Source: an uncultured Solirubrobacterales bacterium (GTDB taxonomy: Bacteria; Actinomycetota; Thermoleophilia; Solirubrobacterales; 70-9). From it: 64,000 bases of DNA. The stretch covers positions 252,018 through 316,017 of the forward strand of contig CAWKGJ010000003.1 of the NCBI GenBank assembly GCA_963849165.1. Reading direction: 5' to 3'. Both the position numbers and the translations under genes were made by a program. Under the pieces are notes generated by a model that worked only from the letters and a program-made list of their open reading frames with translations, was not told the origin of the DNA and made no database searches. Shown here piece by piece: positions 1 to 61,528 of this stretch; position 1 is the stretch's first letter; each line of letters opens with the position of its first letter.

Positions 1-260
1 CATGCGAGGGCTGGCTCGCCAGCATGCGCCACGTGGCGATCGAGTCGGGCGCCGGGCCGCTCTACGGCGAGGAGGGGATCGTCAGCGCCGACTGCGACCT
101 GCGCGAGGGCCTGCGCGCCAAGCGCTGGTTCGACTCGGTCGGCCACTACAGCCGCGCCGACGTCCTGCTGGAGAAGCTGCACGGCAGCGACGGCGCGAGC
201 GAGGCGGGGCCAAGGGAAGCCGGCGCCGGCGCCGAACCTAGTGCCGATGCGCCGCAATGA
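1..260 (+). CDS. carbon-nitrogen hydrolase (nitrilase-family) protein, C-terminal fragment; 5' end outside window
   Basis: ORF open from window edge to TGA 258-260; tail LRAKRWFDSVGHYSRADVL resembles nitrilase-family C-termini. Confidence 0.4.
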   Translation, partial: CEGWLASMRHVAIESGAGPLYGEEGIVSADCDLREGLRAKRWFDSVGHYSRADVLLEKLHGSDGASEAGPREAGAGAEPSADAPQ

Positions 261-489
261 CCTGGACAGGCTCGAGCAGCTCGCCGACACGCTGACGCTG
301 GTCTTCTACGTCCTCGTGCTCTCGGCGCTCCTGATAGCTCTCGCCAGCTCGGCGGGGTCTGGCTTCCTGTTGCTGATCATCGCCTCCTGCGCCTATGTCG
401 GGCAGGCTTCGCTCGGAGAACTCGTCGCCAGGGAGCGCAACGCGGCGCCCCGGCCGCGCCGGGCCCGCCGCGTCAGCTTCGGCGAATAG
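241..489 (+). CDS. hypothetical small membrane protein
   Basis: 82-aa ORF with long hydrophobic stretch LTLVFYVLVLSALLIALASSAGSGFLLLIIASCAYV; start uncertain (GTG 241 or ATG 247). Confidence 0.35.
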   Translation: MPMRRNDLDRLEQLADTLTLVFYVLVLSALLIALASSAGSGFLLLIIASCAYVGQASLGELVARERNAAPRPRRARRVSFGE

Positions 490-635
490 CCGAGCTTCGG
501 GCTTAAAGAACCAGCCTGTTTATCCGCTGACGCCCTTTTTCTCGCAAAGTGGGCAGGAAAAAGAGTCAAAAACTCCACCTTTCGCGAGTAGTAGATGAGT
601 CTGGCCTAAAGCAACTGGCGAAGGGGGTGACTCGG

Positions 636-695
636 ATGAAGTTTGGGGCAACGACGGACACCATGCCTGCGGTCAGCACGAGTAAGGGCGGCTAG
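636..695 (+). CDS. candidate 19-aa peptide MKFGATTDTMPAVSTSKGG (possible precursor or leader peptide)
   Basis: ATG 636 follows near-consensus SD AAGGGGGTGA (621-630); double stop TAGTAG; lies in AT-richer gap directly upstream of an RRE-ThiF-like gene. Confidence 0.3.
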   Translation: MKFGATTDTMPAVSTSKGG

Positions 696-705
696 TAGCT
701 GAGAC

Positions 706-749
706 AAGGGCGGCTTTCGCTCGCATAAGCCGAAGGGGGAGCCGCCCTT
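706..749 (+). promoter_or_regulatory. stem-loop between mini-ORF and thiF-like gene
   Basis: AAGGGCGGC (706-714) is perfectly complementary to GCCGCCCTT (741-749), with inner TTCG/CGAA pairs; the same 9-mer also occurs at 684-692. Confidence 0.45.
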
Positions 750-789
750 CCCCTGCATTGGAGAACTCGCGTATCGGGGGATTGGAGAT

Positions 790-1872
790 ATGAGGCCTCG
801 CGTAAAGAGGACTGTCGAGCAGATTGAAGCGCCGGACGGTGACCTGGTTCTCATGCGTTCCAGCGCCGCGGACGTCCGCATCGACCAACCAGACGACCAG
901 GGGAGGCAGCTGCTGGAAGCCCTGGATGGACGCAGCTCCCGGAACGAGCTCGATGCGCGTTTCGGCGCGGGACGGGTCGAGGAGACCCTTACGCAGATGC
1001 AGGAGCTGGACCTGCTCGAGGATGCCACGGACGACGAGCTGATTCCGCCGGCGGAGCGGGCTCGCTTCGACCGCCAGCTTCGCTACTTCAGCGACCTTCA
1101 CCACCGCGGGGATCCGACCCCGTCTGAATGTCAGACGAGGTTGCGGGAGGCCCGGGTTGCCGTGCTCGGCGTGGGCGGTCTGGGCGGACGGGTGGCGTGG
1201 GAGCTCGCCTGTTGCGGAATCGGCGAGCTCTGGCTGATCGACGGCGACCGCGTCGAGGAGAGCAACCTCAATCGCCAGATCCAGTACACGGAGGCCGACA
1301 TCGGTCGCTCCAAGGTGGAGGCGATGGAGGAACGGCTGCGGGCCTTCAATTCGGGGATCGAGGTGAGGACGGTCGCGCGACGCGTCGAGGCCGAGGCCGA
1401 GCTGGCGGAGCTGATCGAGGGCGCCGACCTGGTCATCGACGCGGCCGACTGGCCTGCCCATGAGATCGAGGACTGGTGCAACGCGGCGTGTTTCGAGGCC
1501 GGCATCCCCTACATAGCGATGAGCCACTACCCGCCGATCGCGAGGGTGGGCCCCCTGTACGTTCCCGGTCAGACCGGGTGCTTTGCCTGTCAGGCGATTG
1601 CCTTCCGGCGGGAGTATCCGCTCTTCGACGTCGCGATCGCCCAGCGTCGGGCCAAGCCGTCGCCGGCGGCGACCCTCGGACCTGCGTGCGGCCTTGTCGG
1701 CGGTCTGGTCGGGGCCGAAGCCATGCATTTCCTGACGCAGCTGATCCCGCCGCCGATGCTGGGAGCCGGCTACCTCTTCGACCTGCGGACGATGGAGGTC
1801 GAGCGTTTCGAGGTGTTGCCGCAGCCCGAGTGCCCGGTCTGCTCGCATCTCCAGCCGGAGGCCCGGCGATGA
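790..1872 (+). CDS. ThiF/MoeB/MccB-type E1-like adenylyltransferase with N-terminal PqqD/RRE-like peptide-binding domain
   Basis: GVGGLGGRVAWELACCGIGELWLIDGDRVEESNLNRQ nucleotide-binding signature; CFAC and C-terminal CPVC cysteine pairs; first ~95 aa read like a winged-helix RRE; SD GGAG before ATG 790. Confidence 0.85.
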   Translation: MRPRVKRTVEQIEAPDGDLVLMRSSAADVRIDQPDDQGRQLLEALDGRSSRNELDARFGAGRVEETLTQMQELDLLEDATDDELIPPAERARFDRQLRYFSDLHHRGDPTPSECQTRLREARVAVLGVGGLGGRVAWELACCGIGELWLIDGDRVEESNLNRQIQYTEADIGRSKVEAMEERLRAFNSGIEVRTVARRVEAEAELAELIEGADLVIDAADWPAHEIEDWCNAACFEAGIPYIAMSHYPPIARVGPLYVPGQTGCFACQAIAFRREYPLFDVAIAQRRAKPSPAATLGPACGLVGGLVGAEAMHFLTQLIPPPMLGAGYLFDLRTMEVERFEVLPQPECPVCSHLQPEARR

Positions 1873-1885
1873 CGCCGTTGCAGGG

Positions 1886-2293
1886 TTAGTCGACGACGAT
1901 CTTGCCGCGCATCGAGGAGTGGATCGTGCAGTGGTAGCGGAAGGTCCCCTTCTGCTTGAAGCTGACCGTGGCCGTCTTGCCGGGCCTGATGCGCCCGGTG
2001 TCGAAGCCGCCGTCGCGGGTCGCCGTGTGGGTGACGCCGCCGGTGTTGGAGAAGACGACCTTCGAGCCGGGAGCGATCTTCAGCGTCGCCGGCCTGAAGG
2101 CGAAATCCTCGATCTTGACCGTCGCCGTCTTGCTCGCCCGCGCGGTCTCGCCGCCGGCGGCGATCTCGCCGCGAGCCGCCGCCAGCGCCAGGCCGAAGGC
2201 GACGAGCGCCAGCACGGCCGCGATCGTCGCCCCCCTCCCTCGAGTCTTCAAGATCGGCGTCACCAGCCGGGGATACGGAGAGCTCCTTGCCAT
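1886..2293 (-). CDS. secreted cupredoxin (plastocyanin/amicyanin-like blue copper protein)
   Basis: C-terminal copper-ligand motif YHCTIHSSMRGKIVV; N-terminal Arg-rich signal or anchor. Confidence 0.8.
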   Translation of the reverse strand: MARSSPYPRLVTPILKTRGRGATIAAVLALVAFGLALAAARGEIAAGGETARASKTATVKIEDFAFRPATLKIAPGSKVVFSNTGGVTHTATRDGGFDTGRIRPGKTATVSFKQKGTFRYHCTIHSSMRGKIVVD

Positions 2294-2329
2294 GGTTCAA
2301 GCCTGGTTCATAATCAGGTCGAGCAGCCC

Positions 2330-2402
2330 GGGCGGTTAGCTCAGTTGGGAGAGCACTTCCCTTACAAGGAAGGGGTCACTGGTTCGAGCCCAGTACCGCC
2401 CA
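2330..2402 (+). tRNA. tRNA-Val (anticodon TAC)
   Basis: Cloverleaf read by hand: acceptor GGGCGGT/ACCGCCC, D arm GCTC..GAGC, anticodon stem CTTCC/GGAAG with loop CTTACAA, T arm ACTGG-TTCGAGC-CCAGT. Confidence 0.9.
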
Positions 2403-2487
2403 TCGTCGTCGTCGCCATCGCTCGCATTGTCGCGCGCGGTTGCCACCGGTCGGGTTTATCGATCTTTTCGCGGGGTAACTCCGGCTC

Positions 2488-2631
2488 ATGCCATTAGCAC
2501 TGCTGCTCATAATCATTGGGATCGTCCTGGCGATACTCGTCAATTACGCGCTGGGGATCATCTGCATCGTTATCGGGCTGGTACTGCTCGTCCTGCCGTG
2601 GCTGCGTGGCAGGGGAACCTCGAGGGTCTAG
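2488..2631 (+). CDS. hypothetical 47-aa hydrophobic membrane peptide
   Basis: MPLALLLIIIGIVLAILVNYALGIICIVIGLVLLVLPWLRGRGTSRV; two predicted TM stretches; below the ORF-track size cut-off. Confidence 0.35.
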   Translation: MPLALLLIIIGIVLAILVNYALGIICIVIGLVLLVLPWLRGRGTSRV

Positions 2632-2640
2632 CCGGTCGCC

Positions 2641-3399
2641 TTACTGCAGGGCGAAGACGACGTGGACCGTGGCGGTCACCGTCGAGGTGCCGGGCTTGAC
2701 CGGCGGCGCCGCGGCGGTGCACCGGGAGGCGGTGCGCTTGGTCGTCGCGACGGGTGGCGCCGCCGGGCTGGAGGTGACGCAGTCTGAGCCCGGGACCGAC
2801 TTCGCCTCGTACTGGGGAGTCAGTTCCGGGCCTTCGCCTTCGTCGATCGTCAGCGCAGGGCCGAGGCTGCCGCCGGCCCGGGTGGCGAGGGCGGTCGCCC
2901 GCGCTTTGGCCTTGTCGAAGGCGGCGGCGAGGGCGTTGGTGAAGGCCAGTTCGGAGTCGCCGACGAAGAAGTTGGGCCCTCTGACGCCGGTCGCGCCGGC
3001 GCCGATCGCGGCGCTGACCAGGTTGCCGGCTTCGTCGGGCTGGTGCAGGGTGACGCTGACCCCCGTCGCCGCCCGGTAGACGACGCGCTCGCCCCGGAAC
3101 GACTTGCGGACCGAGACCCGTCCGGTGGTGACGTCGCCCGGGCCGACGCCGGGGGTCGCCTGCGCCACGGCGATGACGCCGCGCAGGCCGCTGGAGGCGG
3201 CGCGCAGGGCGGCGCCCCTGGTGCGGCGTTCGCGACTGACCGCAAAGCCGAGGCTGGCGGTGTCGTTGGGCACCTTCAGGGTGGCGCTCGCGGTCACCGA
3301 GACCGTCCGTTCGATCGCCGCCTCGGCGCTCGCGGGTGCCAGCAGCGCCAGCGCCAGCAGGGCGGTCAGGGCCGGGGTGCGGAGGCGGGGGCCGATCAT
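2641..3399 (-). CDS. SIMPL-domain (DUF541) secreted protein
   Basis: Signal peptide MIGPRLRTPALTALLALALLAPASAEA followed by SIMPL-like sequence; the rest of the 439-aa ORF upstream is Arg/Pro-rich shadow. Confidence 0.75.
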   Translation of the reverse strand: MIGPRLRTPALTALLALALLAPASAEAAIERTVSVTASATLKVPNDTASLGFAVSRERRTRGAALRAASSGLRGVIAVAQATPGVGPGDVTTGRVSVRKSFRGERVVYRAATGVSVTLHQPDEAGNLVSAAIGAGATGVRGPNFFVGDSELAFTNALAAAFDKAKARATALATRAGGSLGPALTIDEGEGPELTPQYEAKSVPGSDCVTSSPAAPPVATTKRTASRCTAAAPPVKPGTSTVTATVHVVFALQ

Positions 3400-3428
3400 C
3401 TCTCCCAGGCTACCGGCGATCACCGCGG

Positions 3429-4322
3429 TCAGCCGCGTGCGCTCGCCTGCAGCTGCGGGGTCGGGGTGCCGCCGCGGCGGCGCTCGGCTTGGGTGACGAC
3501 GTCGAAGAAGGCGTCGTTGCGGCCGCGCCGCACTTGCCGCGGGAAGAGGTGACGGGCGCGGCGGTGGGCGGCGGTGACGGAGCGGAAGGCGCGCTCGTGC
3601 GAGCGCGTCCAGCCGATGCCGAAGATCTCCCGCACCCGCGGCGGCAGCGTCCCCTTGATGATCAGGTTCTGGGTGGCGAGGTTGGCGCGGGCCGCCGCCG
3701 GCACCGGCTGCCGGAAGGCGACCAGCGGCGCCATCTCCAGCGCGTGCGGGGTCGCGTGCAGGTCGGGTGAGGCGAGCCGCTCCTCCCACCAGGCGCGGAA
3801 CTCGCGGTAGCTGCCGGGCACCTCGGCGGCGGGCAGGCGGAAGAGCTCGCCGAACCGGACGTAGTCCTGCCAGAGCGCTTCGCGCTCGCCTTCGTTCAGC
3901 GGCCGCACCATCGCCTCGTACATCGCCCGCCCGGAGTCGGCGATCACCGCCAGCGTCCACAGCATCAGCTTCGGGTCGAAGGCCGAATAGGCGGCGCCGG
4001 CGGGGTGGGCGCCCGCCGCCTCGCGCAGCTCTCCCTTGATCCGCTCGTGCAGGCGGTCCACCGCGGCGAGGGCTTTGTCGGCTTCCTCGCGGGTGCCGAG
4101 GAAGACGGTCTCCTGGATCTTGGCGGTGCGGGCGAGGCGGGTGAACGGGTGGTCGCCGGCGTTGGTGCTGAGCATCGTGCCGGTGTAGGTGAGCGGTTCC
4201 AGGGCGCCGATCAGGAGCGCCCGCTGGCCGTAGAGGAGGCCGACCGAGCGCTCGCCGTGGACCCGCCGTGCCAGCGAACGCCCGGGCGGGAAGTAGTAGG
4301 TCTCGTCGCTCAAACTGGCCAC
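3429..4322 (-). CDS. DUF2236 / MpaB-type oxygenase family protein
   Basis: Family-typical segments (LLYGQRALLIGALEP, DPKLMLWTLAVIADS); start uncertain: GTG 4322 avoids overlap with ftsH-like gene, ORF is open to 4418. Confidence 0.7.
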   Translation of the reverse strand: MASLSDETYYFPPGRSLARRVHGERSVGLLYGQRALLIGALEPLTYTGTMLSTNAGDHPFTRLARTAKIQETVFLGTREEADKALAAVDRLHERIKGELREAAGAHPAGAAYSAFDPKLMLWTLAVIADSGRAMYEAMVRPLNEGEREALWQDYVRFGELFRLPAAEVPGSYREFRAWWEERLASPDLHATPHALEMAPLVAFRQPVPAAARANLATQNLIIKGTLPPRVREIFGIGWTRSHERAFRSVTAAHRRARHLFPRQVRRGRNDAFFDVVTQAERRRGGTPTPQLQASARG

Positions 4323-54234: not shown

Positions 54235-54309
54235 CTAGACATCGGAGATCGGGCCTCCAATGCCTCACTCGACTCTAAAACCAGCTTCGCCTAGAAAGCA
54301 ACGGATCTA

Positions 54310-54618
54310 GTGGAGGCATCTAGCGCCATTGAGGTCCGCTTGCGCAACCACGAAGCGCGGATCGACGCCAACCACAATTCGGTCTCACGTCTCCGCGACG
54401 CCTCCGCCAACCATGAGACCCGGCTATCTGTCGTCACCACTGAGCTTCGGGAAACCCGCGAAGACATCGCCGAGATGAAAAGGGACCTCGCCGACGCTCG
54501 CTCTGAACAGAAGGAAGAAATGACCTGGGTGCGTAGAGGACTTTGGCTGGCGGCCGGCACTTTCATGATGTTCTTCGTCGCGGCCGCGACCCTCCTCGTT
54601 CAAGTGGCCGGCAGCTGA
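54310..54618 (+). CDS. coiled-coil protein with C-terminal TM helix (lysis-cassette membrane protein)
   Basis: GTG start; C-terminal LWLAAGTFMMFFVAAATLLVQVA. Confidence 0.45.
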   Translation: MEASSAIEVRLRNHEARIDANHNSVSRLRDASANHETRLSVVTTELRETREDIAEMKRDLADARSEQKEEMTWVRRGLWLAAGTFMMFFVAAATLLVQVAGS

Positions 54619-54619
54619 C

Positions 54620-54931
54620 ATGGATCAGATTGAGATCCGACGAGTCAAAGGGCTGCGCATCGCCGTGGCGGCCTTTGCCCTGAGCGTCTTTTTGTTCGTC
54701 GCCGGTATCGGCGGTGCTGTCTGGTTGCTCACTGTCAAAAGCAGCGAAGGGGTCGAAACCCACGAAGCGATCTGTGCCCTGAGCGCCGACCTGGAGGCTC
54801 GCACCGAAAGCTCACGCCGCTTCCTCGAGGAACACCCCCACGGAGCTTTCGGCATCCCCGCGGCCACGATCCGCGAAAGCGTCGAGAACCAAGAACGCTC
54901 GATTGACGCTCTGAGCGTCGTCGACTGCTGA
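54620..54931 (+). CDS. membrane protein with N-terminal TM helix
   Basis: IAVAAFALSVFLFVAGIGGAVWLL. Confidence 0.45.
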   Translation: MDQIEIRRVKGLRIAVAAFALSVFLFVAGIGGAVWLLTVKSSEGVETHEAICALSADLEARTESSRRFLEEHPHGAFGIPAATIRESVENQERSIDALSVVDC

Positions 54932-54977
54932 TTCAGACCTAGCCGCCCAGCGGCTTCCATAACCGAAAGGAGCCTCA

Positions 54978-55790
54978 ATGGCTCGCATCCGAGGGCTGCT
55001 CAAGCAGCTCGCAGAAAAGCTCGGCCTCGGCCAGGCGCAACTAGCCCGCGCACGCCGCCGTTACGCAGCTAATCGCAGGCGCGCATTCAAGGCCCACAAC
55101 CAACAGGTGATGGCCCAGGAAAAGGCCGACAAGCTGCGCTCGGAAGGAGGATATAACGCAACCGCTGCCCCTTTTGAAGACAAGCGCGCCTTGCGCAGGG
55201 GCCATGTCGCCTTCAAGAATCACCAGCGAGCGCAGTTCTGGCTCGGACGGATTAAGGCGCTGACGCAGCAGATCCACAATCTGGAGACCAAGCAGGCCGG
55301 CCTCGAGGCCGAGCGTCAGAAGCTCAGCAAGGTCACGATCAAGGGGGATCAGGCGACTGGCGGAAGTCGCCGCGGCCGACTCAAAGCCGTTGCGCTCGCC
55401 TCGGCTGCTGCGTGTGCCTCGGGCAAGCGGCCTAACTTCTATTCGCAGGTTGGCTCCTTTGACGCCAATCATTGCATCACCGGCCCCGCTTACGGCCACC
55501 GGGATGACTGTTCAAGTTGGTTTGCCTCCGCCTACCGCTCGGCCGGACTCGCCGACCCGAGTGGTCAGCGCTACACCGCTGGCTACACGGGGACCCTCGT
55601 CGCCAACGGAAGGCAGATTTCAGAGCCGGAGGTTGGCTGTGCAGTCATCTACGGCTCTGGCGCAGGCCATCACGTCGAGATGTATGTCGGGCCGGACAGC
55701 AAAACCATCGGCCACGGCTCTGCTCCGGTCGACACTGGCGTCATCAACCTCTTCGGCGATGGCGACTACCGCTTCTTCAAATACATCTAA
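54978..55790 (+). CDS. endolysin-like cysteine peptidase (NlpC/P60 or CHAP type) with coiled-coil N-terminus
   Basis: HRDDCSSWFASAYRSAG...GAGHHVEMYVG Cys-His arrangement; lysis-cassette position. Confidence 0.65.
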   Translation: MARIRGLLKQLAEKLGLGQAQLARARRRYAANRRRAFKAHNQQVMAQEKADKLRSEGGYNATAAPFEDKRALRRGHVAFKNHQRAQFWLGRIKALTQQIHNLETKQAGLEAERQKLSKVTIKGDQATGGSRRGRLKAVALASAAACASGKRPNFYSQVGSFDANHCITGPAYGHRDDCSSWFASAYRSAGLADPSGQRYTAGYTGTLVANGRQISEPEVGCAVIYGSGAGHHVEMYVGPDSKTIGHGSAPVDTGVINLFGDGDYRFFKYI

Positions 55791-55802
55791 CGAAAGGCAC
55801 CA

Positions 55803-55973
55803 ATGAACACCGAGCCCGTAGCTCTCTTTGCAGCCATCGCAGTAGTCGTCGTCTGGGGCGCCAGCCTCTTCGGCATCGTGCTCGATACCGGGGCTATTGA
55901 AAACGCTCTGATCAGCGGCGTCTTCATCGTGACGGCAATCCTTCAGCGTGCCAAGGTCACGCCGACCGGATGA
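55803..55973 (+). CDS. holin-like 56-aa membrane protein
   Basis: Two hydrophobic helices (ALFAAIAVVVVWGASLFGIVL; ISGVFIVTAIL). Confidence 0.45.
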   Translation: MNTEPVALFAAIAVVVVWGASLFGIVLDTGAIENALISGVFIVTAILQRAKVTPTG

Positions 55974-56041
55974 GCCTCGTCACGGTGCTCATCGTCATCA
56001 TCCTGCTGCTGGTCATCCTGCGGGTCCTCGGAGTCATTTAG
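55970..56041 (+). CDS. 23-aa hydrophobic micro-ORF
   Basis: MSLVTVLIVIILLLVILRVLGVI; ATGA overlap. Confidence 0.25.
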   Translation: MSLVTVLIVIILLLVILRVLGVI

Positions 56042-56044
56042 ACC

Positions 56045-56437
56045 GTGCCCGACCCGGTCCCTCTGCGCGAGTATGTGGAGGCGCTTTTCGCTGAGCGCGA
56101 GAAGGCCGTCGAAGCTGCGCTTGCCTCCCAGGAGAAGGCCGTCACGGCTGCTCTCGACGCGTCGGACAAAGCCATCAGCAAGGCCGAGACCAACGCGGAG
56201 AAATGGCGGGAGAACGCGAATGAGTGGCGCGGGGCAATGTCAGACCGCGACCGCGAGCTCCCATCCCGTCGTGAGGTCGAGCAAACCACGGCAAGTCTCG
56301 GCGATCGGATCACCAAGATTGAGAACTCCGTCTCCAACACGGGCGGTCGGCAGGAAGGCCTTAACGCTTTCTGGGGCTATCTCGTCGGCGCGGTCGGCGT
56401 CCTCGCCGCTGTCGCCGCCATCCTCACAAACACCTGA
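56045..56437 (+). CDS. coiled-coil protein with C-terminal TM anchor
   Basis: REYVEALFAEREKAVEAAL...C-terminal GYLVGAVGVLAAVAAIL. Confidence 0.5.
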   Translation: MPDPVPLREYVEALFAEREKAVEAALASQEKAVTAALDASDKAISKAETNAEKWRENANEWRGAMSDRDRELPSRREVEQTTASLGDRITKIENSVSNTGGRQEGLNAFWGYLVGAVGVLAAVAAILTNT

Positions 56438-56748
56438 TGAACACCGCTCGCAAAGGCAACGAAGCCGAGCGCTTCGTTGCCAAGGACCTCGAGCGCCGCG
56501 GCTTCCTCGTCGGCTCGAGGAGGCATGTTGGCGGCGCCGGCGACCATATCGCGGTCCATCCCAGCGGCGAAGTCTGGCTGGTCGAGGTCAAGGCAACCAA
56601 AGGCCGCTTCTCTGGCTTCAAGAGAGGCGACCGCCTAGCGATGAAAGAAACGCAGCTCCCTCTCGCCAGTGTCCGCTACCTGGCCCACGTCACGGGCTCA
56701 GATGAGCGAATGTCCGTCGAATACGTTCACGAACGAGACTGGCCCTAG
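56437..56748 (+). CDS. PD-(D/E)xK nuclease, Hjc/Holliday-junction-resolvase-like
   Basis: GNEAERFVAKDLERRGFLV...GDHIAVHPSGEVWLVEVKAT (E...D...EVK motif). Confidence 0.6.
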   Translation: MNTARKGNEAERFVAKDLERRGFLVGSRRHVGGAGDHIAVHPSGEVWLVEVKATKGRFSGFKRGDRLAMKETQLPLASVRYLAHVTGSDERMSVEYVHERDWP

Positions 56749-56868
56749 CTCCAAGCCAATTCCAAGTTGCTCCAAGATTGGGAGTTAGCCCTGATACTTA
56801 ATAAGTAGCAATAGAATCATCGACCCCGTCGTCTCTTCGCTGAGGCGGCGGGGTTTCGTCGTTCTAGG

Positions 56869-57207
56869 CTAGATCGAAAAGCAATACGGTTCCCCGGCAT
56901 TTTTCAACTGGACTCGCCCCGAGTAACTGACTCCCCAGTGAAGGACGGTGTTGCACTCAATTTCTTCTCCCGGTTCGACGCCGGGATAAAAGCGCCCGAC
57001 GGTGCAATCGAAGCGGCTGCTGCTCTGCCGGTAACACTGGCCTACGGCGTAGGCGACGCATTCCGCGATTTCGCGGCAGCCTTCCTTGGCGTATTCTTTG
57101 CTCGCGTGCTTCGCCTGCCCGTAGCGCATGTGCCATTGGAACGCCTCAGCACTACCCGCCAGGGCGAAGAACGCCGCCATCGCTATCACTGCCAGCCTGA
57201 CCTGCAT
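56869..57207 (-). CDS. secreted Cys-rich protein (moron)
   Basis: Signal peptide MQVRLAVIAMAAFFALAGSAEA; Cys-rich mature part; SD GAGGGGAGG; opposite strand to late genes. Confidence 0.55.
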   Translation of the reverse strand: MQVRLAVIAMAAFFALAGSAEAFQWHMRYGQAKHASKEYAKEGCREIAECVAYAVGQCYRQSSSRFDCTVGRFYPGVEPGEEIECNTVLHWGVSYSGRVQLKNAGEPYCFSI

Positions 57208-57384
57208 TACGGCCTCCCCTCAGTGGACGACCGCGAGGATACCTAAAGCGGGCCGACCGGTCATCCCGTTCGGCCCGCCCGCTCACTCGCGAATCCGCTA
57301 GGGCTGATTGTCCTCTCTCGCGACGAGGCGTGGATTAAGCCGCAGACCCCCCAGCGTACCGAGATCAAGGCCGCCTAAAAGTAA

Positions 57385-57410
57385 GCGGGCCGGCTCTTGA
57401 GCCGGCCCGC
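57385..57410 (-). terminator. intrinsic terminator (minus-strand sense)
   Basis: GCGGGCCGGC / GCCGGCCCGC 10-bp stem; on the minus strand followed by TTACTTTTA. Confidence 0.6.
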
Positions 57411-57417
57411 TGGGCTG

Positions 57418-57477
57418 TTAAGCCCCCTTGTGAACCTGCTTGTTCGGCACGATCGCGCTTTGCGTCGAGATCTTCAT
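57418..57477 (-). CDS. candidate 19-aa peptide MKISTQSAIVPNKQVHKGA
   Basis: SD GGAAGGGGGT 8 nt upstream of ATG 57477; stop is 7 nt from the terminator. Confidence 0.25.
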   Translation of the reverse strand: MKISTQSAIVPNKQVHKGA

Positions 57478-57606
57478 CCCTGCTCACCCCCTTCCGGTCG
57501 GTCTCTACTTGGAGACCTGTCCACCGGTGAAGCAGGTTCCTAGTGAAGCGAGGGGATGCTAGGGGCTATCTTGAGGAGCGCAGGGTTTCGGAGGAGAGAC
57601 GAGCGA

Positions 57607-58218
57607 ATGCCTGAGTCAAAACATGCCGCTGGCATCAACGCAGCGCTTTTCAAAGCGCTGAGCCATCCCCTCCAAGGTCGGATCATGGTCTTGCTGACTG
57701 AGTCAGAAGCGTCCCCGAAACAGATGGCGGATCGTCTTGGCGAGCCCCTAGACAAGGTCGCCTACCACGTACGCAGCATGGCCAAGGCCGACCCTCCTCT
57801 TCTTGAGCTGGTTCGCATCGATCCCGCGAAGCGGGGCACCCAGAAGGTTTACAAAGCTATTGCCAGACCTATTCTCGAGGTCGATTCATGGGAGCGCTTA
57901 CCCCGCCTCCTCCGTGAAGTCAACTCAGTATGGGTGGCTCAGCTCGTGGTCGAAGATCTGCGTGAAGCGATCGAGGCTCAGACCTTCGACGCCCGAGTCG
58001 GGCGGACGCTACTTCGCGTTCCGCGAGTGCTTGACGAGCAAGCTTGGGAGGAACTTGAGCCGGCCGCCATGCGGTATCTGGAGGAGGTTGATGCAATCGC
58101 CGGCCAGGCCGCCGACCGACTGGCCGAGTCGGGGGAGAAAGGGTTCAATGTCTCGACGGTCACGTTCGCCATCGAGATGCCGCCCGCGCCGGAAGGCCAG
58201 GCCGGCGGTTCAGCTTGA
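57607..58218 (+). CDS. ArsR-type winged-helix regulator with C-terminal extension
   Basis: LFKALSHPLQGRIMVLLTESEASPKQMADRLGEPLDKVAYHVRSM; ORF open from 57556. Confidence 0.6.
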   Translation: MPESKHAAGINAALFKALSHPLQGRIMVLLTESEASPKQMADRLGEPLDKVAYHVRSMAKADPPLLELVRIDPAKRGTQKVYKAIARPILEVDSWERLPRLLREVNSVWVAQLVVEDLREAIEAQTFDARVGRTLLRVPRVLDEQAWEELEPAAMRYLEEVDAIAGQAADRLAESGEKGFNVSTVTFAIEMPPAPEGQAGGSA

Positions 58219-58373
58219 CCAGGTTTCACCGGTGGGGGCAATTCGCATTGACAGATGCCTCGTCCTTCAGAAAGACTCTTGACCGGTCTGGAGGACTCGA
58301 ACAACGGAGCTGAGGCGTCTAATGGCAGGACAATCGTTTAGGGCATTGAGATCAGGCGTGGGTACCGCTACGT

Positions 58374-58592
58374 TTGTCTCGGGCTGGGAGGCGCCGGGAG
58401 AGGGGCTATGTGTCGAACCCGTTGCCACGTTTGAGAACGATCCGCAAGCTGGAATCCAAGGCCGAGAAGCTGAAGAAAGAGCGCGACCGCTTGGTTCGCG
58501 AAGCCGGCGCCAACTACACCGAGGGCCAGATCGCGAAGGCGTCCGGGCTCTCGCAGACGAGGGTTCACGAAATCCTCAACGGCGACCAATGA
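58374..58592 (+). CDS. small HTH protein
   Basis: C-terminal YTEGQIAKASGLSQTRVHEIL; start uncertain. Confidence 0.45.
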   Translation: MSRAGRRRERGYVSNPLPRLRTIRKLESKAEKLKKERDRLVREAGANYTEGQIAKASGLSQTRVHEILNGDQ

Positions 58593-58714
58593 CTTATTCC
58601 TTGCCTTCTCATCAAAACTGGGTACCGTGCCACGGATGCCCGTAGAGGAGACTGCCCCAACTCGCGACGAAGTAGAGCTTCTAGCGGACGCCTTACTGAG
58701 CCTTCGACGCGCCG

Positions 58715-59128
58715 CTAAGTGCCAGTCCCTGCCCCGCCATGCTCGAGGCGCTCTATCCGCTTCAGCATCTCTTCTTGAGCTTTTCGTACCTCGACCAGCT
58801 CTGCGGATTGTTCCGTCAAGGCACCGACCGTCTCGCCCAGCGCCTTCCGTAATTGATCAGCCTCTCCTGGCTCCGGTTCGCTGAGGCCGAAAAGGTCGCG
58901 GCGACCAGTCGCCTCAGCGACAAGGATCGCGATTGCACGGCGCTTCGCGGGAGTGTCTCCAAGGCTTGCTTCCTCACCAGCCTCCCACCGGCCAACGGTC
59001 TTCTTGTCGCGCCCTAACCACTCGCCGAGCGCCTGCTGGCTCATTGGGCCGCGAGCTTCTTTGATGGCTCGGGCGAGAGCGTCTTTGTCGTCGTAAACCG
59101 GTGCCACGTGCTGCACCATACGTCCCAC
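58715..59128 (-). CDS. CI-like prophage repressor (HTH plus coiled-coil)
   Basis: MSQQALGEWLGRDKKTVGRWEAG HTH; divergent from cro-like gene; start GTG 59128 or ATG 59119. Confidence 0.65.
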   Translation of the reverse strand: MGRMVQHVAPVYDDKDALARAIKEARGPMSQQALGEWLGRDKKTVGRWEAGEEASLGDTPAKRRAIAILVAEATGRRDLFGLSEPEPGEADQLRKALGETVGALTEQSAELVEVRKAQEEMLKRIERLEHGGAGTGT

Positions 59129-59131
59129 TGC

Positions 59132-59187
59132 GTCTCATTGAGGAGACTCCTTGACACTGCTGGAGACTCTGTGGTACAAATAGAGAC
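59132..59187. promoter_or_regulatory. immunity switch: operator palindrome, phased half-sites and Pcro-like promoter
   Basis: GTCTC-ATTGAG-GAGAC (59132-59147); GAGAC again at 59163 and 59183 (20-bp phasing); TTGACA (59151-59156), 18 nt, TACAAA (59175-59180); ATG at 59188. Confidence 0.5.
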
Positions 59188-59445
59188 ATGGCGGGGACGA
59201 AAGCGACTCTGCGGTACCAGCCCAATCGCAAGCTTCAAGCTCTGCGGATCAACGCGGGCATGTCTCCCAATGACCTTGGCTACCAGGCTGGGGTCTCGGG
59301 AAAGACCATCCGCATGGTCGAGGCAGGGCATACGCCTAGCCCTCGGGTGCAGTTCGCCATCGCTGGCGTCTTCAACCTTCTTCCGCTCGATATCTGGCCG
59401 CTCCATGAGCGCCGGCATCTCGACCGTCGGCCGGTGCCCGCATGA
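59188..59445 (+). CDS. Cro-like XRE HTH protein
   Basis: LQALRINAGMSPNDLGYQAGVSGKTIRMVEAG. Confidence 0.6.
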   Translation: MAGTKATLRYQPNRKLQALRINAGMSPNDLGYQAGVSGKTIRMVEAGHTPSPRVQFAIAGVFNLLPLDIWPLHERRHLDRRPVPA

Positions 59446-59651
59446 GTGTCGACCTCAAAGCCGAGCGCCTGAATCGCGGACTCAGTCTGGATGCACTGGC
59501 AGCCGAGACGGGAGTTCCGAAAAGCACCTTGGCTCGCGCTGAGAACGGCGGCCCGCAGCCAACTGCCAGTAATGCCTTCGCCATCGCAGACTTCTACGGC
59601 TTCAAGGTCACCGATATCTGGCCCCTCCCCGAGAAGGCGAGTGCGGCGTGA
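59442..59651 (+). CDS. XRE-family HTH protein
   Basis: LKAERLNRGLSLDALAAETGVPKSTLARAENG. Confidence 0.65.
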   Translation: MSVDLKAERLNRGLSLDALAAETGVPKSTLARAENGGPQPTASNAFAIADFYGFKVTDIWPLPEKASAA

Positions 59652-59902
59652 AGCTCAACGAGACCCCAGCCGGCCCGATGCCAGCACGGTCGGTCCTCCG
59701 TTACTCCCGCCGGGCCAAACTCTGCAACGCCCACGGCAAGTTGGGCTATCGCACCCGCCGCAAGGCACTAAGAGCCGCTGAGCGATCGCGGGGAGACAAA
59801 GGCCCTCCTCTCGCCGTCTATCGCTGCAACTCCTGCAACCGCTTTCACATCACGTCTGACGTAGAGCGCGCCAAAGCAACGCGAGCGAGGGAAGTCGCCT
59901 GA
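59648..59902 (+). CDS. small zinc-ribbon protein (paralog of 29042-29230)
   Basis: VYRCNSCNRFHITS. Confidence 0.45.
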   Translation: MKLNETPAGPMPARSVLRYSRRAKLCNAHGKLGYRTRRKALRAAERSRGDKGPPLAVYRCNSCNRFHITSDVERAKATRAREVA

Positions 59903-60030
59903 TGCCGACTTGGGTCTACCTTCTCACCGCCCTCGTCTTGATCGCAGGGCTGATCTTCGTCGGCCTCGGGATCTGCGCAGCAGCAGGACACGCAGACGAA
60001 GACATGGGTGCCAAGGAGCGACAACGCTGA
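59902..60030 (+). CDS. 42-aa membrane peptide
   Basis: WVYLLTALVLIAGLIFVGLGICAAA; overlaps upstream stop (TGATG) and downstream start (ATGA-type). Confidence 0.3.
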   Translation: MPTWVYLLTALVLIAGLIFVGLGICAAAGHADEDMGAKERQR

Positions 60031-60206
60031 TGCTAGTCGCCGTTTTCCTCCTCGCCGCTATCGCTGCGGTCCTAATCATTGCCGAGGCCCGCAAAGAGCG
60101 CACCGAGCCGACCCGGGTTGAGGTCGAAGAGCAGATCGAGAACTGGTCCTGGCCAGAGCGCAACGTAGGCCCGGTTGGCCGCACCCATCTTGGGAGACGC
60201 TCGTGA
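60030..60206 (+). CDS. 58-aa membrane protein
   Basis: MLVAVFLLAAIAAVLIIA. Confidence 0.35.
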   Translation: MLVAVFLLAAIAAVLIIAEARKERTEPTRVEVEEQIENWSWPERNVGPVGRTHLGRRS

Positions 60207-60430
60207 GCTTTACCGCCAAGGACATGGCCTGGCTGGCCTCCCAGGAGAAGCAGACCCAGATGGTCCACAACTCCATCGAGCTGGCCCATCTTGAAGCCCG
60301 ATTGACCCGTCATCTCAAGGAGGCCGAACAGATCAAGGCCAAGATGATGGAGCTCCACGAGGACGAAGCGGCCAACTGCATGGAAACGGCCGCCTGCGCG
60401 ATCGAGGACTCCAAGGCTGCGCTGCGATGA
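60203..60430 (+). CDS. hypothetical phage protein
   Basis: 75-aa helical ORF. Confidence 0.45.
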   Translation: MSFTAKDMAWLASQEKQTQMVHNSIELAHLEARLTRHLKEAEQIKAKMMELHEDEAANCMETAACAIEDSKAALR

Positions 60431-61245
60431 CCGAGACGGTGACGGTCAAGTCCTTCGGCAATCCGAAGGCCTGGGATCACGGGATCACCTACTGGGACGT
60501 GGTCTTCGACCGCAACGGCACTGACTTCTCCTGCACCTGGGGCAAGAAAGACACGGAACCCTCCGTGGGCGAAACGGTCGAGGGCGAATTCTTTGAGAAG
60601 AACGGGGACTGGCGTTTCCGAAAGGCATCCAAACCTCAGAGCGGCACTCCCTCCAGCGAAGTCCGCACCGGCTCTGCCGGGTCTTCAAACTCCGGGAAGC
60701 GCGAATGGAAACCCGAGTCCCAGTACGACCCCGAGAAAACGGCTCGCATTGGCCGCGCCCACGCTCAGCACATGGGCATCCTCACCTGTGACGCGATGGG
60801 CCTCTTTGAGAGCGTCAGCGCCTCCCAGATCGAGAGCAAGCTGAAAGACTGGATCGACTTCTACGAGAAGGACGTAAACCAGGCCGGTGAGGCTGCGAGG
60901 CAGACGCCGGGTAATGCCACCCCCGGGGTACGGGAGAGCGCGGCTACCTCCCTGGCCAGCGCCCCCCCGGCGTCTGCCTCGCAGCCTGCCGACCCCACGC
61001 TGACTGAGATAGAGCAGGCGCTTGATTCGGCCGGGCTGATGGGTCCTGCGCGCTCCCAGGTCGCCTCTTACATGCTCTCCCAGCTTTCAACCGAGCAGCA
61101 AGTCAACACGATTCGCAAATTGACGGGCTCGAACCCGGAAGCCCAGTCGAGCGCGCTGGGTTCGCTGAAGACCCTGACCGAGAAATGGTCTGGCAAACCC
61201 TTGCCGATCGGTGACCTTGCCGATGGATCGGACCTACCGTTTTGA
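60427..61245 (+). CDS. hypothetical phage protein (two domains joined by a Ser/Gly linker)
   Basis: 272-aa ORF. Confidence 0.5.
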   Translation: MTETVTVKSFGNPKAWDHGITYWDVVFDRNGTDFSCTWGKKDTEPSVGETVEGEFFEKNGDWRFRKASKPQSGTPSSEVRTGSAGSSNSGKREWKPESQYDPEKTARIGRAHAQHMGILTCDAMGLFESVSASQIESKLKDWIDFYEKDVNQAGEAARQTPGNATPGVRESAATSLASAPPASASQPADPTLTEIEQALDSAGLMGPARSQVASYMLSQLSTEQQVNTIRKLTGSNPEAQSSALGSLKTLTEKWSGKPLPIGDLADGSDLPF

Positions 61246-61528
61246 CGCGCATTCGGATCTGGGGCAAGTCCTGATGTTCTATTCGCCCGACCGATACATC
61301 AACGGCGTCCAGGTCGATGCGACCTACGAGCAGGAGATCCGGGAGTTCATCTCGACTCCATCCACCGAGGAACGTGCCCTAGCTGCTTACGAGAAACGGA
61401 GCGAGTTCCTGCCTTCCGGCTCCCGTGCTGAAGACCGCCGCGAACGGGCATACACGCGCATGGAATCCGACGTGGACCTCCATGAGAAGCTCCTTCACCC
61501 TCCGAGCAAGCCGGAGCAGATCTGGTGA
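61211..61528 (+). CDS. hypothetical phage protein
   Basis: ORF; true start may be further downstream. Confidence 0.4.
   Translation: MTLPMDRTYRFDAHSDLGQVLMFYSPDRYINGVQVDATYEQEIREFISTPSTEERALAAYEKRSEFLPSGSRAEDRRERAYTRMESDVDLHEKLLHPPSKPEQIW

Follow-up and report, generated by a model that had tools for sequence, protein, structure and literature searches.

In the genome of an uncultured Solirubrobacterales bacterium (GenBank assembly GCA_963849165.1), the gene for a 360-residue E1-like adenylating enzyme is preceded by an open reading frame (ORF) of only 19 codons, whose product would end in Gly-Gly. This arrangement raises the question of whether the mini-ORF is a gene and what the enzyme does with its product. 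The stretch analyzed, hereafter the window, comprised 64,000 nucleotides (nt) of contig CAWKGJ010000003.1 (positions 252,018 to 316,017); coordinates are positions in the window, and L001-L086 denote related loci. The mini-ORF, its Shine-Dalgarno (SD) sequence, a repeated 9-mer and the enzyme gene had been located in a sequence-only reading of the window, and all of them were matched in the sequence. That reading had also proposed an enzyme that holds a peptide and adenylates a carboxylate. This architecture was retained as the best reading of the conserved ORF, the ATP site, the grouping of the enzyme with MccB and PaaA and the fold of its N-terminal domain, which is that of a RiPP (peptide synthesized by the ribosome and modified post-translationally) recognition element (RRE). 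The probability that the pair is a module for the modification of a ribosomal peptide, whose enzyme binds the peptide and activates the C-terminal carboxylate by adenylation, was estimated at roughly two in three.

Conservation of the peptide gene

Fifteen enzyme homologues were aligned, and the alignment was used as a query to fetch 80 related loci, all of them from metagenome-assembled genomes of Solirubrobacterales or Thermoleophilia; with the window included, 81 sources were available. Motif and profile scans showed that 39 of these have a homologous ORF of 18-19 codons adjoining the enzyme gene. Over the family, the peptides consist of 18-21 residues. They start with Met, followed by Lys or Thr and then a hydrophobic residue, and share a common total length and a small last residue. 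Pro is located at position -9 from the C-terminus in all peptides but one (L047, with Pro at -8), and Lys is located at -3 in all but one (L027, with Arg). The C-terminus reads ...P-x-x-S-T-S-K-G-G in the subgroup of the window peptide and ...[IV]-P-x-x-S-[IV]-H-K-x-G in the larger subgroup. The last residue is Gly in ~32 peptides, Asn in 6, Ala in 2 and Cys in 1. The expectation that orthologous loci would carry a mini-ORF ending in Gly-Gly was borne out as far as the mini-ORF is concerned, but the penultimate residue varies in most relatives, and Gly-Gly is confined to the closest subgroup.

In 14 close copies of the peptide gene, the diversity at the first, second and third codon positions was 0.255, 0.197 and 0.466, respectively, the third position being about twice as diverse as the others. 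In addition, one Ser of the peptide is encoded alternately by AGT and TCN codons in these copies. The excess at the third position and the switch between the two kinds of Ser codon indicate that selection acts on the peptide and not on the RNA. Taking this codon-position signature together with the recurrence of an ORF of the same length and motif, it may be concluded from the comparison of loci that the mini-ORF (636-695) is a real, conserved coding gene, as had been supposed. An SD-like sequence, (A)AGGGGGTGA or GGAGGTGA, precedes the peptide ORF at the same spacing in the type A relatives. No model in Pfam or NCBIfam covers the peptide.

Tandem second copies of the peptide gene were found in L002, L003 and L005, and in L003 and L005 one copy ends in Gly-Asn and the other in Gly-Gly. 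The peptide of L066 (3930-3989), MKISATSSAIPMVLIHKSC, ends in Cys instead of Gly and does not have the usual Ser at -6. In L081 (2860-2929), the peptide ORF is apparently split by a frameshift, with VLKLEAARAP and VMPALDILKTG in successive frames, which may reflect an indel in the assembly or a pseudogene. A degenerate peptide in the 95-nt spacer of the peptide-less loci was considered and rejected, the conserved bases there being a promoter-like motif.

Structure and family placement of the enzyme

The 360-residue ORF (790-1872) carries the motifs GVGGLGG, NLNRQ, CFAC and CPVC. In a Pfam search it matched ThiF only (residues 94-350, E = 2.8e-52). In an alignment of 15 diverse members of the family, the GxGxxG, DxD and NLNRQ motifs, the Lys that follows NLNRQ and the DAAD motif were invariant (G127, G129, G130, G132, D151, D153, N159, R162, Q163, K175 and D220), as were the zinc-site cysteines of CFAC and CPVC (C264, C267, C348 and C351). 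The adenylation signature described earlier is thereby intact throughout this alignment; the ATP/Mg site appears complete, and the enzyme is predicted to be catalytically competent.

When the family profile was compared with all sequences of the PDB, MccB scored 167 bits, PaaA 128, ThiF 119 and MoeB 112, and the alignment with PaaA began at residue 2 of the enzyme. Among the NCBIfam models, TIGR02356 scored 128.8 against an equivalog cut-off of 275, and the MoeB models scored 111-122 against cut-offs of 266-449. TIGR03882 exceeded its cut-off (52.1 vs 36.9 bits), with a match restricted to residues 244-356, i.e., to the C-terminal part of the ThiF fold, outside the RRE. This match accounts for the public name "TOMM precursor leader peptide-binding protein", in which TOMM stands for thiazole/oxazole-modified microcin. 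The full-length AlphaFold2 model had a pLDDT (predicted local distance difference test) of 89.5; MccB and PaaA were matched to it over ~350 columns with a TMq of ~0.75, whereas ThiF and MoeB were matched over only ~268 columns. Profile, NCBIfam and fold comparisons agree, and the possibility that the enzyme groups with genuine MoeB or ThiF was not borne out: as judged from sequence and from the model, its closest relatives are MccB and PaaA.

Residues 1-95 are modeled as four short strands followed by three helices (pLDDT 90-97), and the first 97 residues modeled alone gave a pLDDT of 86.9. The top PDB matches of this domain in Foldseek were all RREs (LynD, TruD, ThcOx, PbtF, TigE, TbiB1, PaaA, McbB and MccB). 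The earlier assignment of the first ~95 residues to a PqqD/RRE-like domain is therefore confirmed at the level of the predicted fold. No Pfam or NCBIfam model matched this domain by sequence; in a search of 1.84 billion representative proteins only 62 hits were obtained, and no relatives outside the lineage were detected.

In the public annotation, the peptide was missed, and the enzyme was named a TOMM docking protein or MoeB. The public gene call P0001 (339 residues) begins at Met22, that is, 21 residues late (790-852). Because these first 21 residues, MRPRVKRTVEQIEAPDGDLVL, are conserved throughout the family and belong to the RRE sheet, the P0001 call is too short.

Stem-loop between the two genes

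The 9-mer AAGGGCGGC, located at 684-692, is repeated at 706-714, and both copies are perfectly complementary to GCCGCCCTT at 741-749, as had been noticed previously. The tight hairpin (703-752) had a folding energy of -28.4 kcal/mol and z = -4.4, and none of 500 mononucleotide shuffles was as stable; when a 70-nt stretch was folded and dinucleotides were shuffled instead, z was only -1.6. The fold of the whole 621-790 region was unremarkable in comparison with shuffles (z = -0.64), so that only the local hairpin stands out.

A stem-loop followed the peptide stop codon at all loci with a gap of 69 nt or more before the enzyme gene and at all those with a remote peptide gene; there was no hairpin where the stop codon lies 5-17 nt from the enzyme start. 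These stem-loops start 1-27 nt past the stop codon and have energies of -24 to -43 kcal/mol, with z < -2 in 22 of 29 loci (median -3.4, dinucleotide shuffles). Their sequences are unrelated between loci while the structure is conserved, and a few of them have a U-tract.

It had been suggested that the two copies of the 9-mer give rise to two mutually exclusive hairpins. Both pairings do exist in the window, where the last codons of the ORF can form 11 pairs with the 3' arm (741-749). However, the fold that includes this alternative pairing reached only -22 to -23 kcal/mol, compared with -33.5 to -39 kcal/mol for the proximal hairpin, the pairing with the ORF end being ~17 kcal/mol weaker; moreover, the alternative pairing was absent in 16 of 25 relatives and was mostly not above shuffles in the rest. 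Since it is weak and not conserved, the conserved feature is, on comparison of the sequences, the stem-loop after the ORF and not a two-state switch.

An Rfam scan of positions 1-3000 (E up to 10) gave no match in the 490-790 gap, and a scan of positions 400-2000 for sigma-70 promoter and U-tract terminator consensus sequences found none. At mccA-mccB, the peptide mRNA to which the intergenic terminator gives rise is short, highly stable and bound by ribosomes, and it is present in ~20-fold excess (PMC4231749). By analogy, the stem-loop most likely ends or stabilizes a short, abundant peptide transcript, and the peptide would be made in excess over the enzyme.

Regulatory partners and a remote peptide gene

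In 39 of the 81 sources, a regulator of the ArsR/HTH_20 type (~215-270 residues) stands beside the peptide gene, usually in divergent orientation. The regulator-bearing sources are nearly the same as the peptide-bearing ones, and the 42 peptide-less loci have no regulator, with one exception. A promoter motif, in its usual form G[GA]AAC-N17/18-GGTCT, resembles the promoters of extracytoplasmic function (ECF) sigma factors. A looser form, [GAT][GA]AA[CT]-N15-19-[GC][GAC]TC[TA], was found upstream of the peptide or the enzyme gene in 61 of the 81 loci, the number expected by chance being 0.12 per 400 nt. The first module of the window (636-1872) has no clean copy of the ECF-like motif. Elsewhere in the family, an ECF-sigma-type promoter would drive the module, and an ArsR-type regulator would be paired with it. 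The combination of regulator and ECF-type promoter points to a regulated physiological or signaling role rather than to a classic exported antibiotic.

Some peptide copies are remote from the enzyme gene and have a promoter motif and a terminator of their own; one of them is found in the window at 57.4-58.2 kb, with no enzyme gene nearby. The match of this second peptide to the hidden Markov model of the peptide family was weak when taken alone (E = 1); the peptide shares the SD sequence, the length, Pro at -9, Lys at -3 and the usual context of the family. It ends in Ala and resembles the ...HKxG subgroup, unlike the peptide beside the window's enzyme. The adjoining regulator scored 27.3 bits with PF12840 (cut-off 27), and a PDB sequence search with it gave no match. 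The second module is surrounded by small genes without a family (54300-61300), among which a repressor-like protein (58715-59128) and a hemolysin/holin-like protein (54310-54618) gave weak PHROG matches. This region may be a mobile or phage-derived island; a prophage was not called there, the PHROG searches at 54-61 kb having yielded only these two weak matches.

Distant relatives of ~40-50% identity, still from Thermoleophilia, keep the peptide layout (L081-L083 and L086), and regulator homologues are also present in L081-L084 and L086. In L082 and L086 the gene order is regulator, ECF sigma factor (1481-1987 and 2150-2656, respectively), class I S-adenosylmethionine (SAM) methyltransferase (2055-3000 and 2671-3600), peptide and enzyme, and the peptides read ...IVPAVA[VI]TK[AS]N. 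L082 additionally has an MFS transporter, and L081 has an ABC-2 exporter and a methyltransferase gene of the same class (2023-2930). In L004, L009, L021 and L069, too, such a gene immediately precedes that of the peptide or of the enzyme. The methyltransferase before the peptide in L082 and L086 goes together with an Asn-ended peptide and recalls the methyltransferase-bearing variants of microcin C.

Comparison with known ThiF-like RiPP enzymes

ThiF-like RiPP enzymes acting on short precursors have already been described, namely MccB, PaaA, GrcB, EnfB and IndF (PMC12596934, PMC12250964, PMC12150305), and the best reading of the enzyme studied here is an uncharacterized branch of these RRE-ThiF-like enzymes. 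The earlier statement that the pair fits no known class does not hold, since EnfB and IndF are now described as enzymes of this kind that activate the C-terminal carboxylate. None of the substrates of EnfB and IndF is Gly-terminated (PMC12250964, PMC12596934, PMC12150305).

The pair resembles MccB/MccA of microcin C7 from E. coli in the fusion of an RRE ("peptide clamp") to a ThiF-type domain, in the very short precursor gene immediately upstream and in the stem-loop between the two genes, which in mccA-mccB sets their ratio (PMC4231749). It differs in that MccA has 7 residues and an obligatory Asn end, whereas the peptide here has 19 residues and ends in Gly; the identity between the enzyme and MccB is ~25%, and neither the MccC exporter nor MccD/E/F genes are present. 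EnfA/EnfB (enterofaecin, Enterococcus), compared by description, likewise combines a short precursor of 21 residues with the lack of a dedicated peptidase. EnfB uses one ATP to adenylate the C-terminal carboxylate of the precursor, and subsequent capture of the adenylate by the nitrogen of an amide or amine results in cyclization or in amidation with amines (PMC12250964). EnfA, however, has a C-terminal WWIVI motif with an Ile end and belongs to a Firmicutes system with four transporters. IndF/IndA of Streptococcus pneumoniae is similar in having an RRE-ThiF enzyme in a minimal cluster; IndF activates the C-terminus for intramolecular macrocyclization, in which it is captured by an indole nitrogen (PMC12150305). 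That nitrogen is provided by Trp, which the peptide here does not contain, and the IndF cluster includes a peptidase and a transporter.

PaaA (pantocin A) is the second-best solved relative, and its N-terminal domain is both aligned and matched in fold. In contrast to the reaction proposed here, PaaA activates Glu side chains midway in the 30-residue precursor PaaP and acts with the oxidase PaaB. ThiF, MoeB and E1 enzymes share the adenylation fold and the zinc site, and the group that they activate is a C-terminal Gly carboxylate. The present system differs from them in that the substrate is a 19-mer and not a β-grasp protein, an RRE is present and Gly-Gly is not family-wide. In the literature searches, no work was found on this family of Thermoleophilia or on any substrate with a Gly terminus.

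Proposed mechanism and alternative explanations

The RRE would bind the N-terminal half of the peptide, which begins with the Met-Lys/Thr-hydrophobic pattern, and the stretch from Pro to the C-terminus, with its fixed length of nine residues, would thread the last residue, a small one, into the active site, where the C-terminal carboxylate would be adenylated. An amine or a hydroxyl might then capture the acyl-adenylate. The likeliest nucleophile may be the near-invariant Lys at -3, with a small C-terminal lactam as the product; as a second choice, Ser at -6 could give a six-residue lactone, or an external amine could react. Termini of Gly, Asn, Ala and Cys are all found with enzymes that are very much alike, so that participation of the terminal side chain in the reaction is unlikely; for the window peptide, this speaks against the MccB route.

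Several observations weigh against this mechanism. No peptidase or exporter was seen near the pair, which is unusual for secreted RiPPs. The public runs that contain the window sequence were soil DNA contigs only, with no transcripts. The hairpin after the mini-ORF lacks a U-tract and was not called as a terminator. At 42 of the 81 enzyme loci there is no peptide within 4 kb, and cis pairing is therefore not obligatory. Owing to the Arg at -3 in L027 and the ~15% of peptides that do not have Ser at -6, neither candidate nucleophile is strictly invariant. In favor of the mechanism, the RRE domain is equally conserved in the loci without an adjacent peptide and in the others; thus, the substrate in the former is probably encoded elsewhere in the genome, and the remote module at 57.4-57.5 kb demonstrates that enzyme-distant peptide genes do occur.

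Alternatively, the peptide might be a micro ubiquitin-like or sulfur-carrier tag whose terminal Gly is adenylated by the E1-like enzyme and then converted to a thiocarboxylate or conjugated to a protein Lys or a small-molecule amine, the RRE replacing the β-grasp fold in recognition. With Lys-Gly-Gly at their ends, the window peptide and its closest relatives recall the Arg-Gly-Gly of ubiquitin, the chromosomal position is conserved across the order, no exporter or peptidase is present, and EnfB is able to amidate an activated C-terminus with outside amines (PMC12250964). Nevertheless, a tag is unlikely: most relatives do not have the penultimate Gly and may end in Asn, Ala or Cys, so the earlier analogy between Gly-Gly and E1 substrates applies to the closest subgroup but not to most of the family; no rhodanese, E2, JAMM or cysteine-desulfurase genes were found at the loci with annotated neighbors; and in the PDB profile comparison, MccB and PaaA stand nearer to the enzyme than ThiF or MoeB do. 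No β-grasp partner of the ThiS/MoaD type was found among the annotated neighbors in the window or in L001-L086, where no dedicated search for one was run. It is similarly doubtful that the peptide is a 19-residue carrier or tag representing a minimal counterpart of ubiquitin or ThiS, recognized by the RRE, handed on as a thiocarboxylate or in an amide linkage to a protein or metabolite, induced by ECF-sigma-dependent stress and distributed order-wide. At the position that we take to be that of Cys184 in ThiF, the crossover loop of the enzyme has no Cys in an alignment made by eye. The attachment of a nucleotide to the C-terminal residue via a phosphoramidate, as performed by MccB, is quite improbable as well. 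The best match in both sequence and fold is indeed MccB, ten Asn-ended peptides are found (L003a, L005a, L017, L028, L047, L078, L082, L083, L086 and one further copy), and L082 has, besides the enzyme and a peptide ending in Asn, both a methyltransferase and an MFS transporter. However, the peptides of the window end in Gly (636-695) and Ala (57418-57477), and most of the family ends in Gly, whereas the MccB route requires the side-chain amide of Asn for succinimide formation (PMC12596934). Furthermore, the first 9 kb of the window contain no genes of the MccC/D/E/F type, and L082 alone has an adjacent MFS gene.

Another possibility is that the mini-ORF is a regulatory upstream ORF whose translation toggles hairpins controlling the enzyme gene, the peptide itself being functionless. 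The 9-mer repeat and its complement permit two competing pairings in the window, and ribosome-dependent control of the mccA-mccB terminator provides a precedent (PMC4231749). The comparative data already largely refute this explanation, which is very improbable: conservation is at the amino acid level with synonymous turnover, peptide genes also occur in tandem and far from any enzyme gene, the loci with a short spacer have no hairpin, most relatives do not have the alternative pairing, and the enzyme has a peptide-binding domain. Finally, the enzyme could be a TOMM/azoline docking protein, i.e., a ThiF-like scaffold without catalytic activity, whose task would be to offer a precursor to a YcaO cyclodehydratase. 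This agrees with the TIGR03882 match and with the public names, which include "bacteriocin biosynthesis cyclodehydratase domain" in addition to the name cited above. It is hardly credible, given that the ATP-binding motifs are intact and invariant, that the peptide contains no Cys and few Ser/Thr, and that no YcaO was found in the first 9 kb of the window or in the gene tables of L081-L086, the other 80 loci lying outside the gene-by-gene Pfam scan.

Locus and neighboring genes

The features of the two modules in the window are listed in Table 1. As had been pointed out, the gap in front of the enzyme gene is richer in AT: the GC content is 54-62% over ~450-900 and 67-75% in the flanks.

Table 1. 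Positions of the features of the two peptide modules in the window
Feature	Position	Strand	Remarks
Shine-Dalgarno-like sequence AAGGGGGTGA	621..630	+	5 nt ahead of the mini-ORF ATG
Precursor-peptide gene, 19 aa, MKFGATTDTMPAVSTSKGG	636..695 (ATG 636, stop TAG 693-695)	+	
Lys-Gly-Gly codons AAGGGCGGC, second copy of the 5' arm of the stem	684..692	+	exact repeat
GC-rich stem-loop, 10 nt past the stop codon; arms AAGGGCGGC.../...GCCGCCCTT, no U-tract	706..749	+	
RRE-like domain, enzyme residues 1-95	790..1074	+	AlphaFold2, Foldseek
ThiF/E1-type adenylation domain, enzyme residues 93-360	1066..1872	+	Pfam ThiF
Intrinsic-terminator-like hairpin, 12-bp stem, tail TACTTTTAGG, z = -3.6	57384..57411	-	
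Second peptide gene, 19 codons, MKISTQSAIVPNKQVHKGA, no enzyme gene beside it	57418..57477	-	
ECF-sigma-like promoter motif GGAAC-N18-GGTCT	57513..57540	-	upstream of the second peptide gene
ArsR/HTH_20-type regulator, divergent from the second peptide gene	57556..58218	+	Pfam PF12840

The enzyme gene of the window is surrounded by an 82-residue ORF and the genes for a cupredoxin, tRNA-Val, a SIMPL protein, an MpaB-like oxygenase and FtsH. Among these neighbors, neither a transporter gene nor a tailoring gene was found to adjoin the pair, in agreement with what had been reported from the sequence. The cupredoxin (plastocyanin/amicyanin-like, 1886-2293, minus strand) has an N-terminus resembling a signal peptide, and its gene is convergent with that of the enzyme; its position next to the enzyme is not kept at other loci. 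The tRNA-Val gene (2330-2402) lies just downstream of the enzyme gene. Genes resembling tyrosine integrases were found 3' of the enzyme gene in L015, L037, L055, L061 and L068, at ~+1500 to +3900, and point to a nearby hot spot of integration.

Synteny in the larger subgroup was studied in L014, L016, L032, L044 and ~35 further loci, from -1400 to +2100 of the enzyme start. The 5' part comprises genes for a CDP-alcohol phosphatidyltransferase-like protein, an MMPL transporter, a small secreted protein and a uracil-DNA glycosylase; the 3' part comprises the enzyme, a Cys-rich lipoprotein and a DUF1211-like membrane protein. The unit of regulator and peptide either sits between the glycosylase and the enzyme or is absent. 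An apparent operon of small plus-strand genes (ORF clusters c2, c7 and c9), including a 79-residue ThiS/MoaD candidate (c9), was rejected as the antisense shadow of the MMPL transporter gene; shadow ORFs of this kind contaminated the ORF clusters of this high-GC DNA. An apparent upstream ThiF paralogue was likewise rejected; it was the uracil-DNA glycosylase, merged into the cluster via read-through ORFs.

Significance

ThiF-like RiPP enzymes are a young field, and every precursor type added to it so far has brought a new chemistry: phosphoramidate, indolizidone, thiolactone, macrocyclic imide and indolylamide. The precursor layout found here (18-21 residues ending in a small one, with Pro at -9 and Lys at -3) is unlike these types, and the pair is compact, comprising 60 nt and 1.1 kb. 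The type of enzyme is familiar; the class of substrate is new, and so are the regulators that accompany it and the retention of one chromosomal position throughout the order. The family occurs in a group of soil actinobacteria, and its host class, Thermoleophilia, has hardly been cultured. In these bacteria, the unusual layout, the usual lack of an exporter and a peptidase, the fixed position, the ArsR regulator and the ECF-type promoter together suggest a physiological or signaling peptide rather than an antibiotic.

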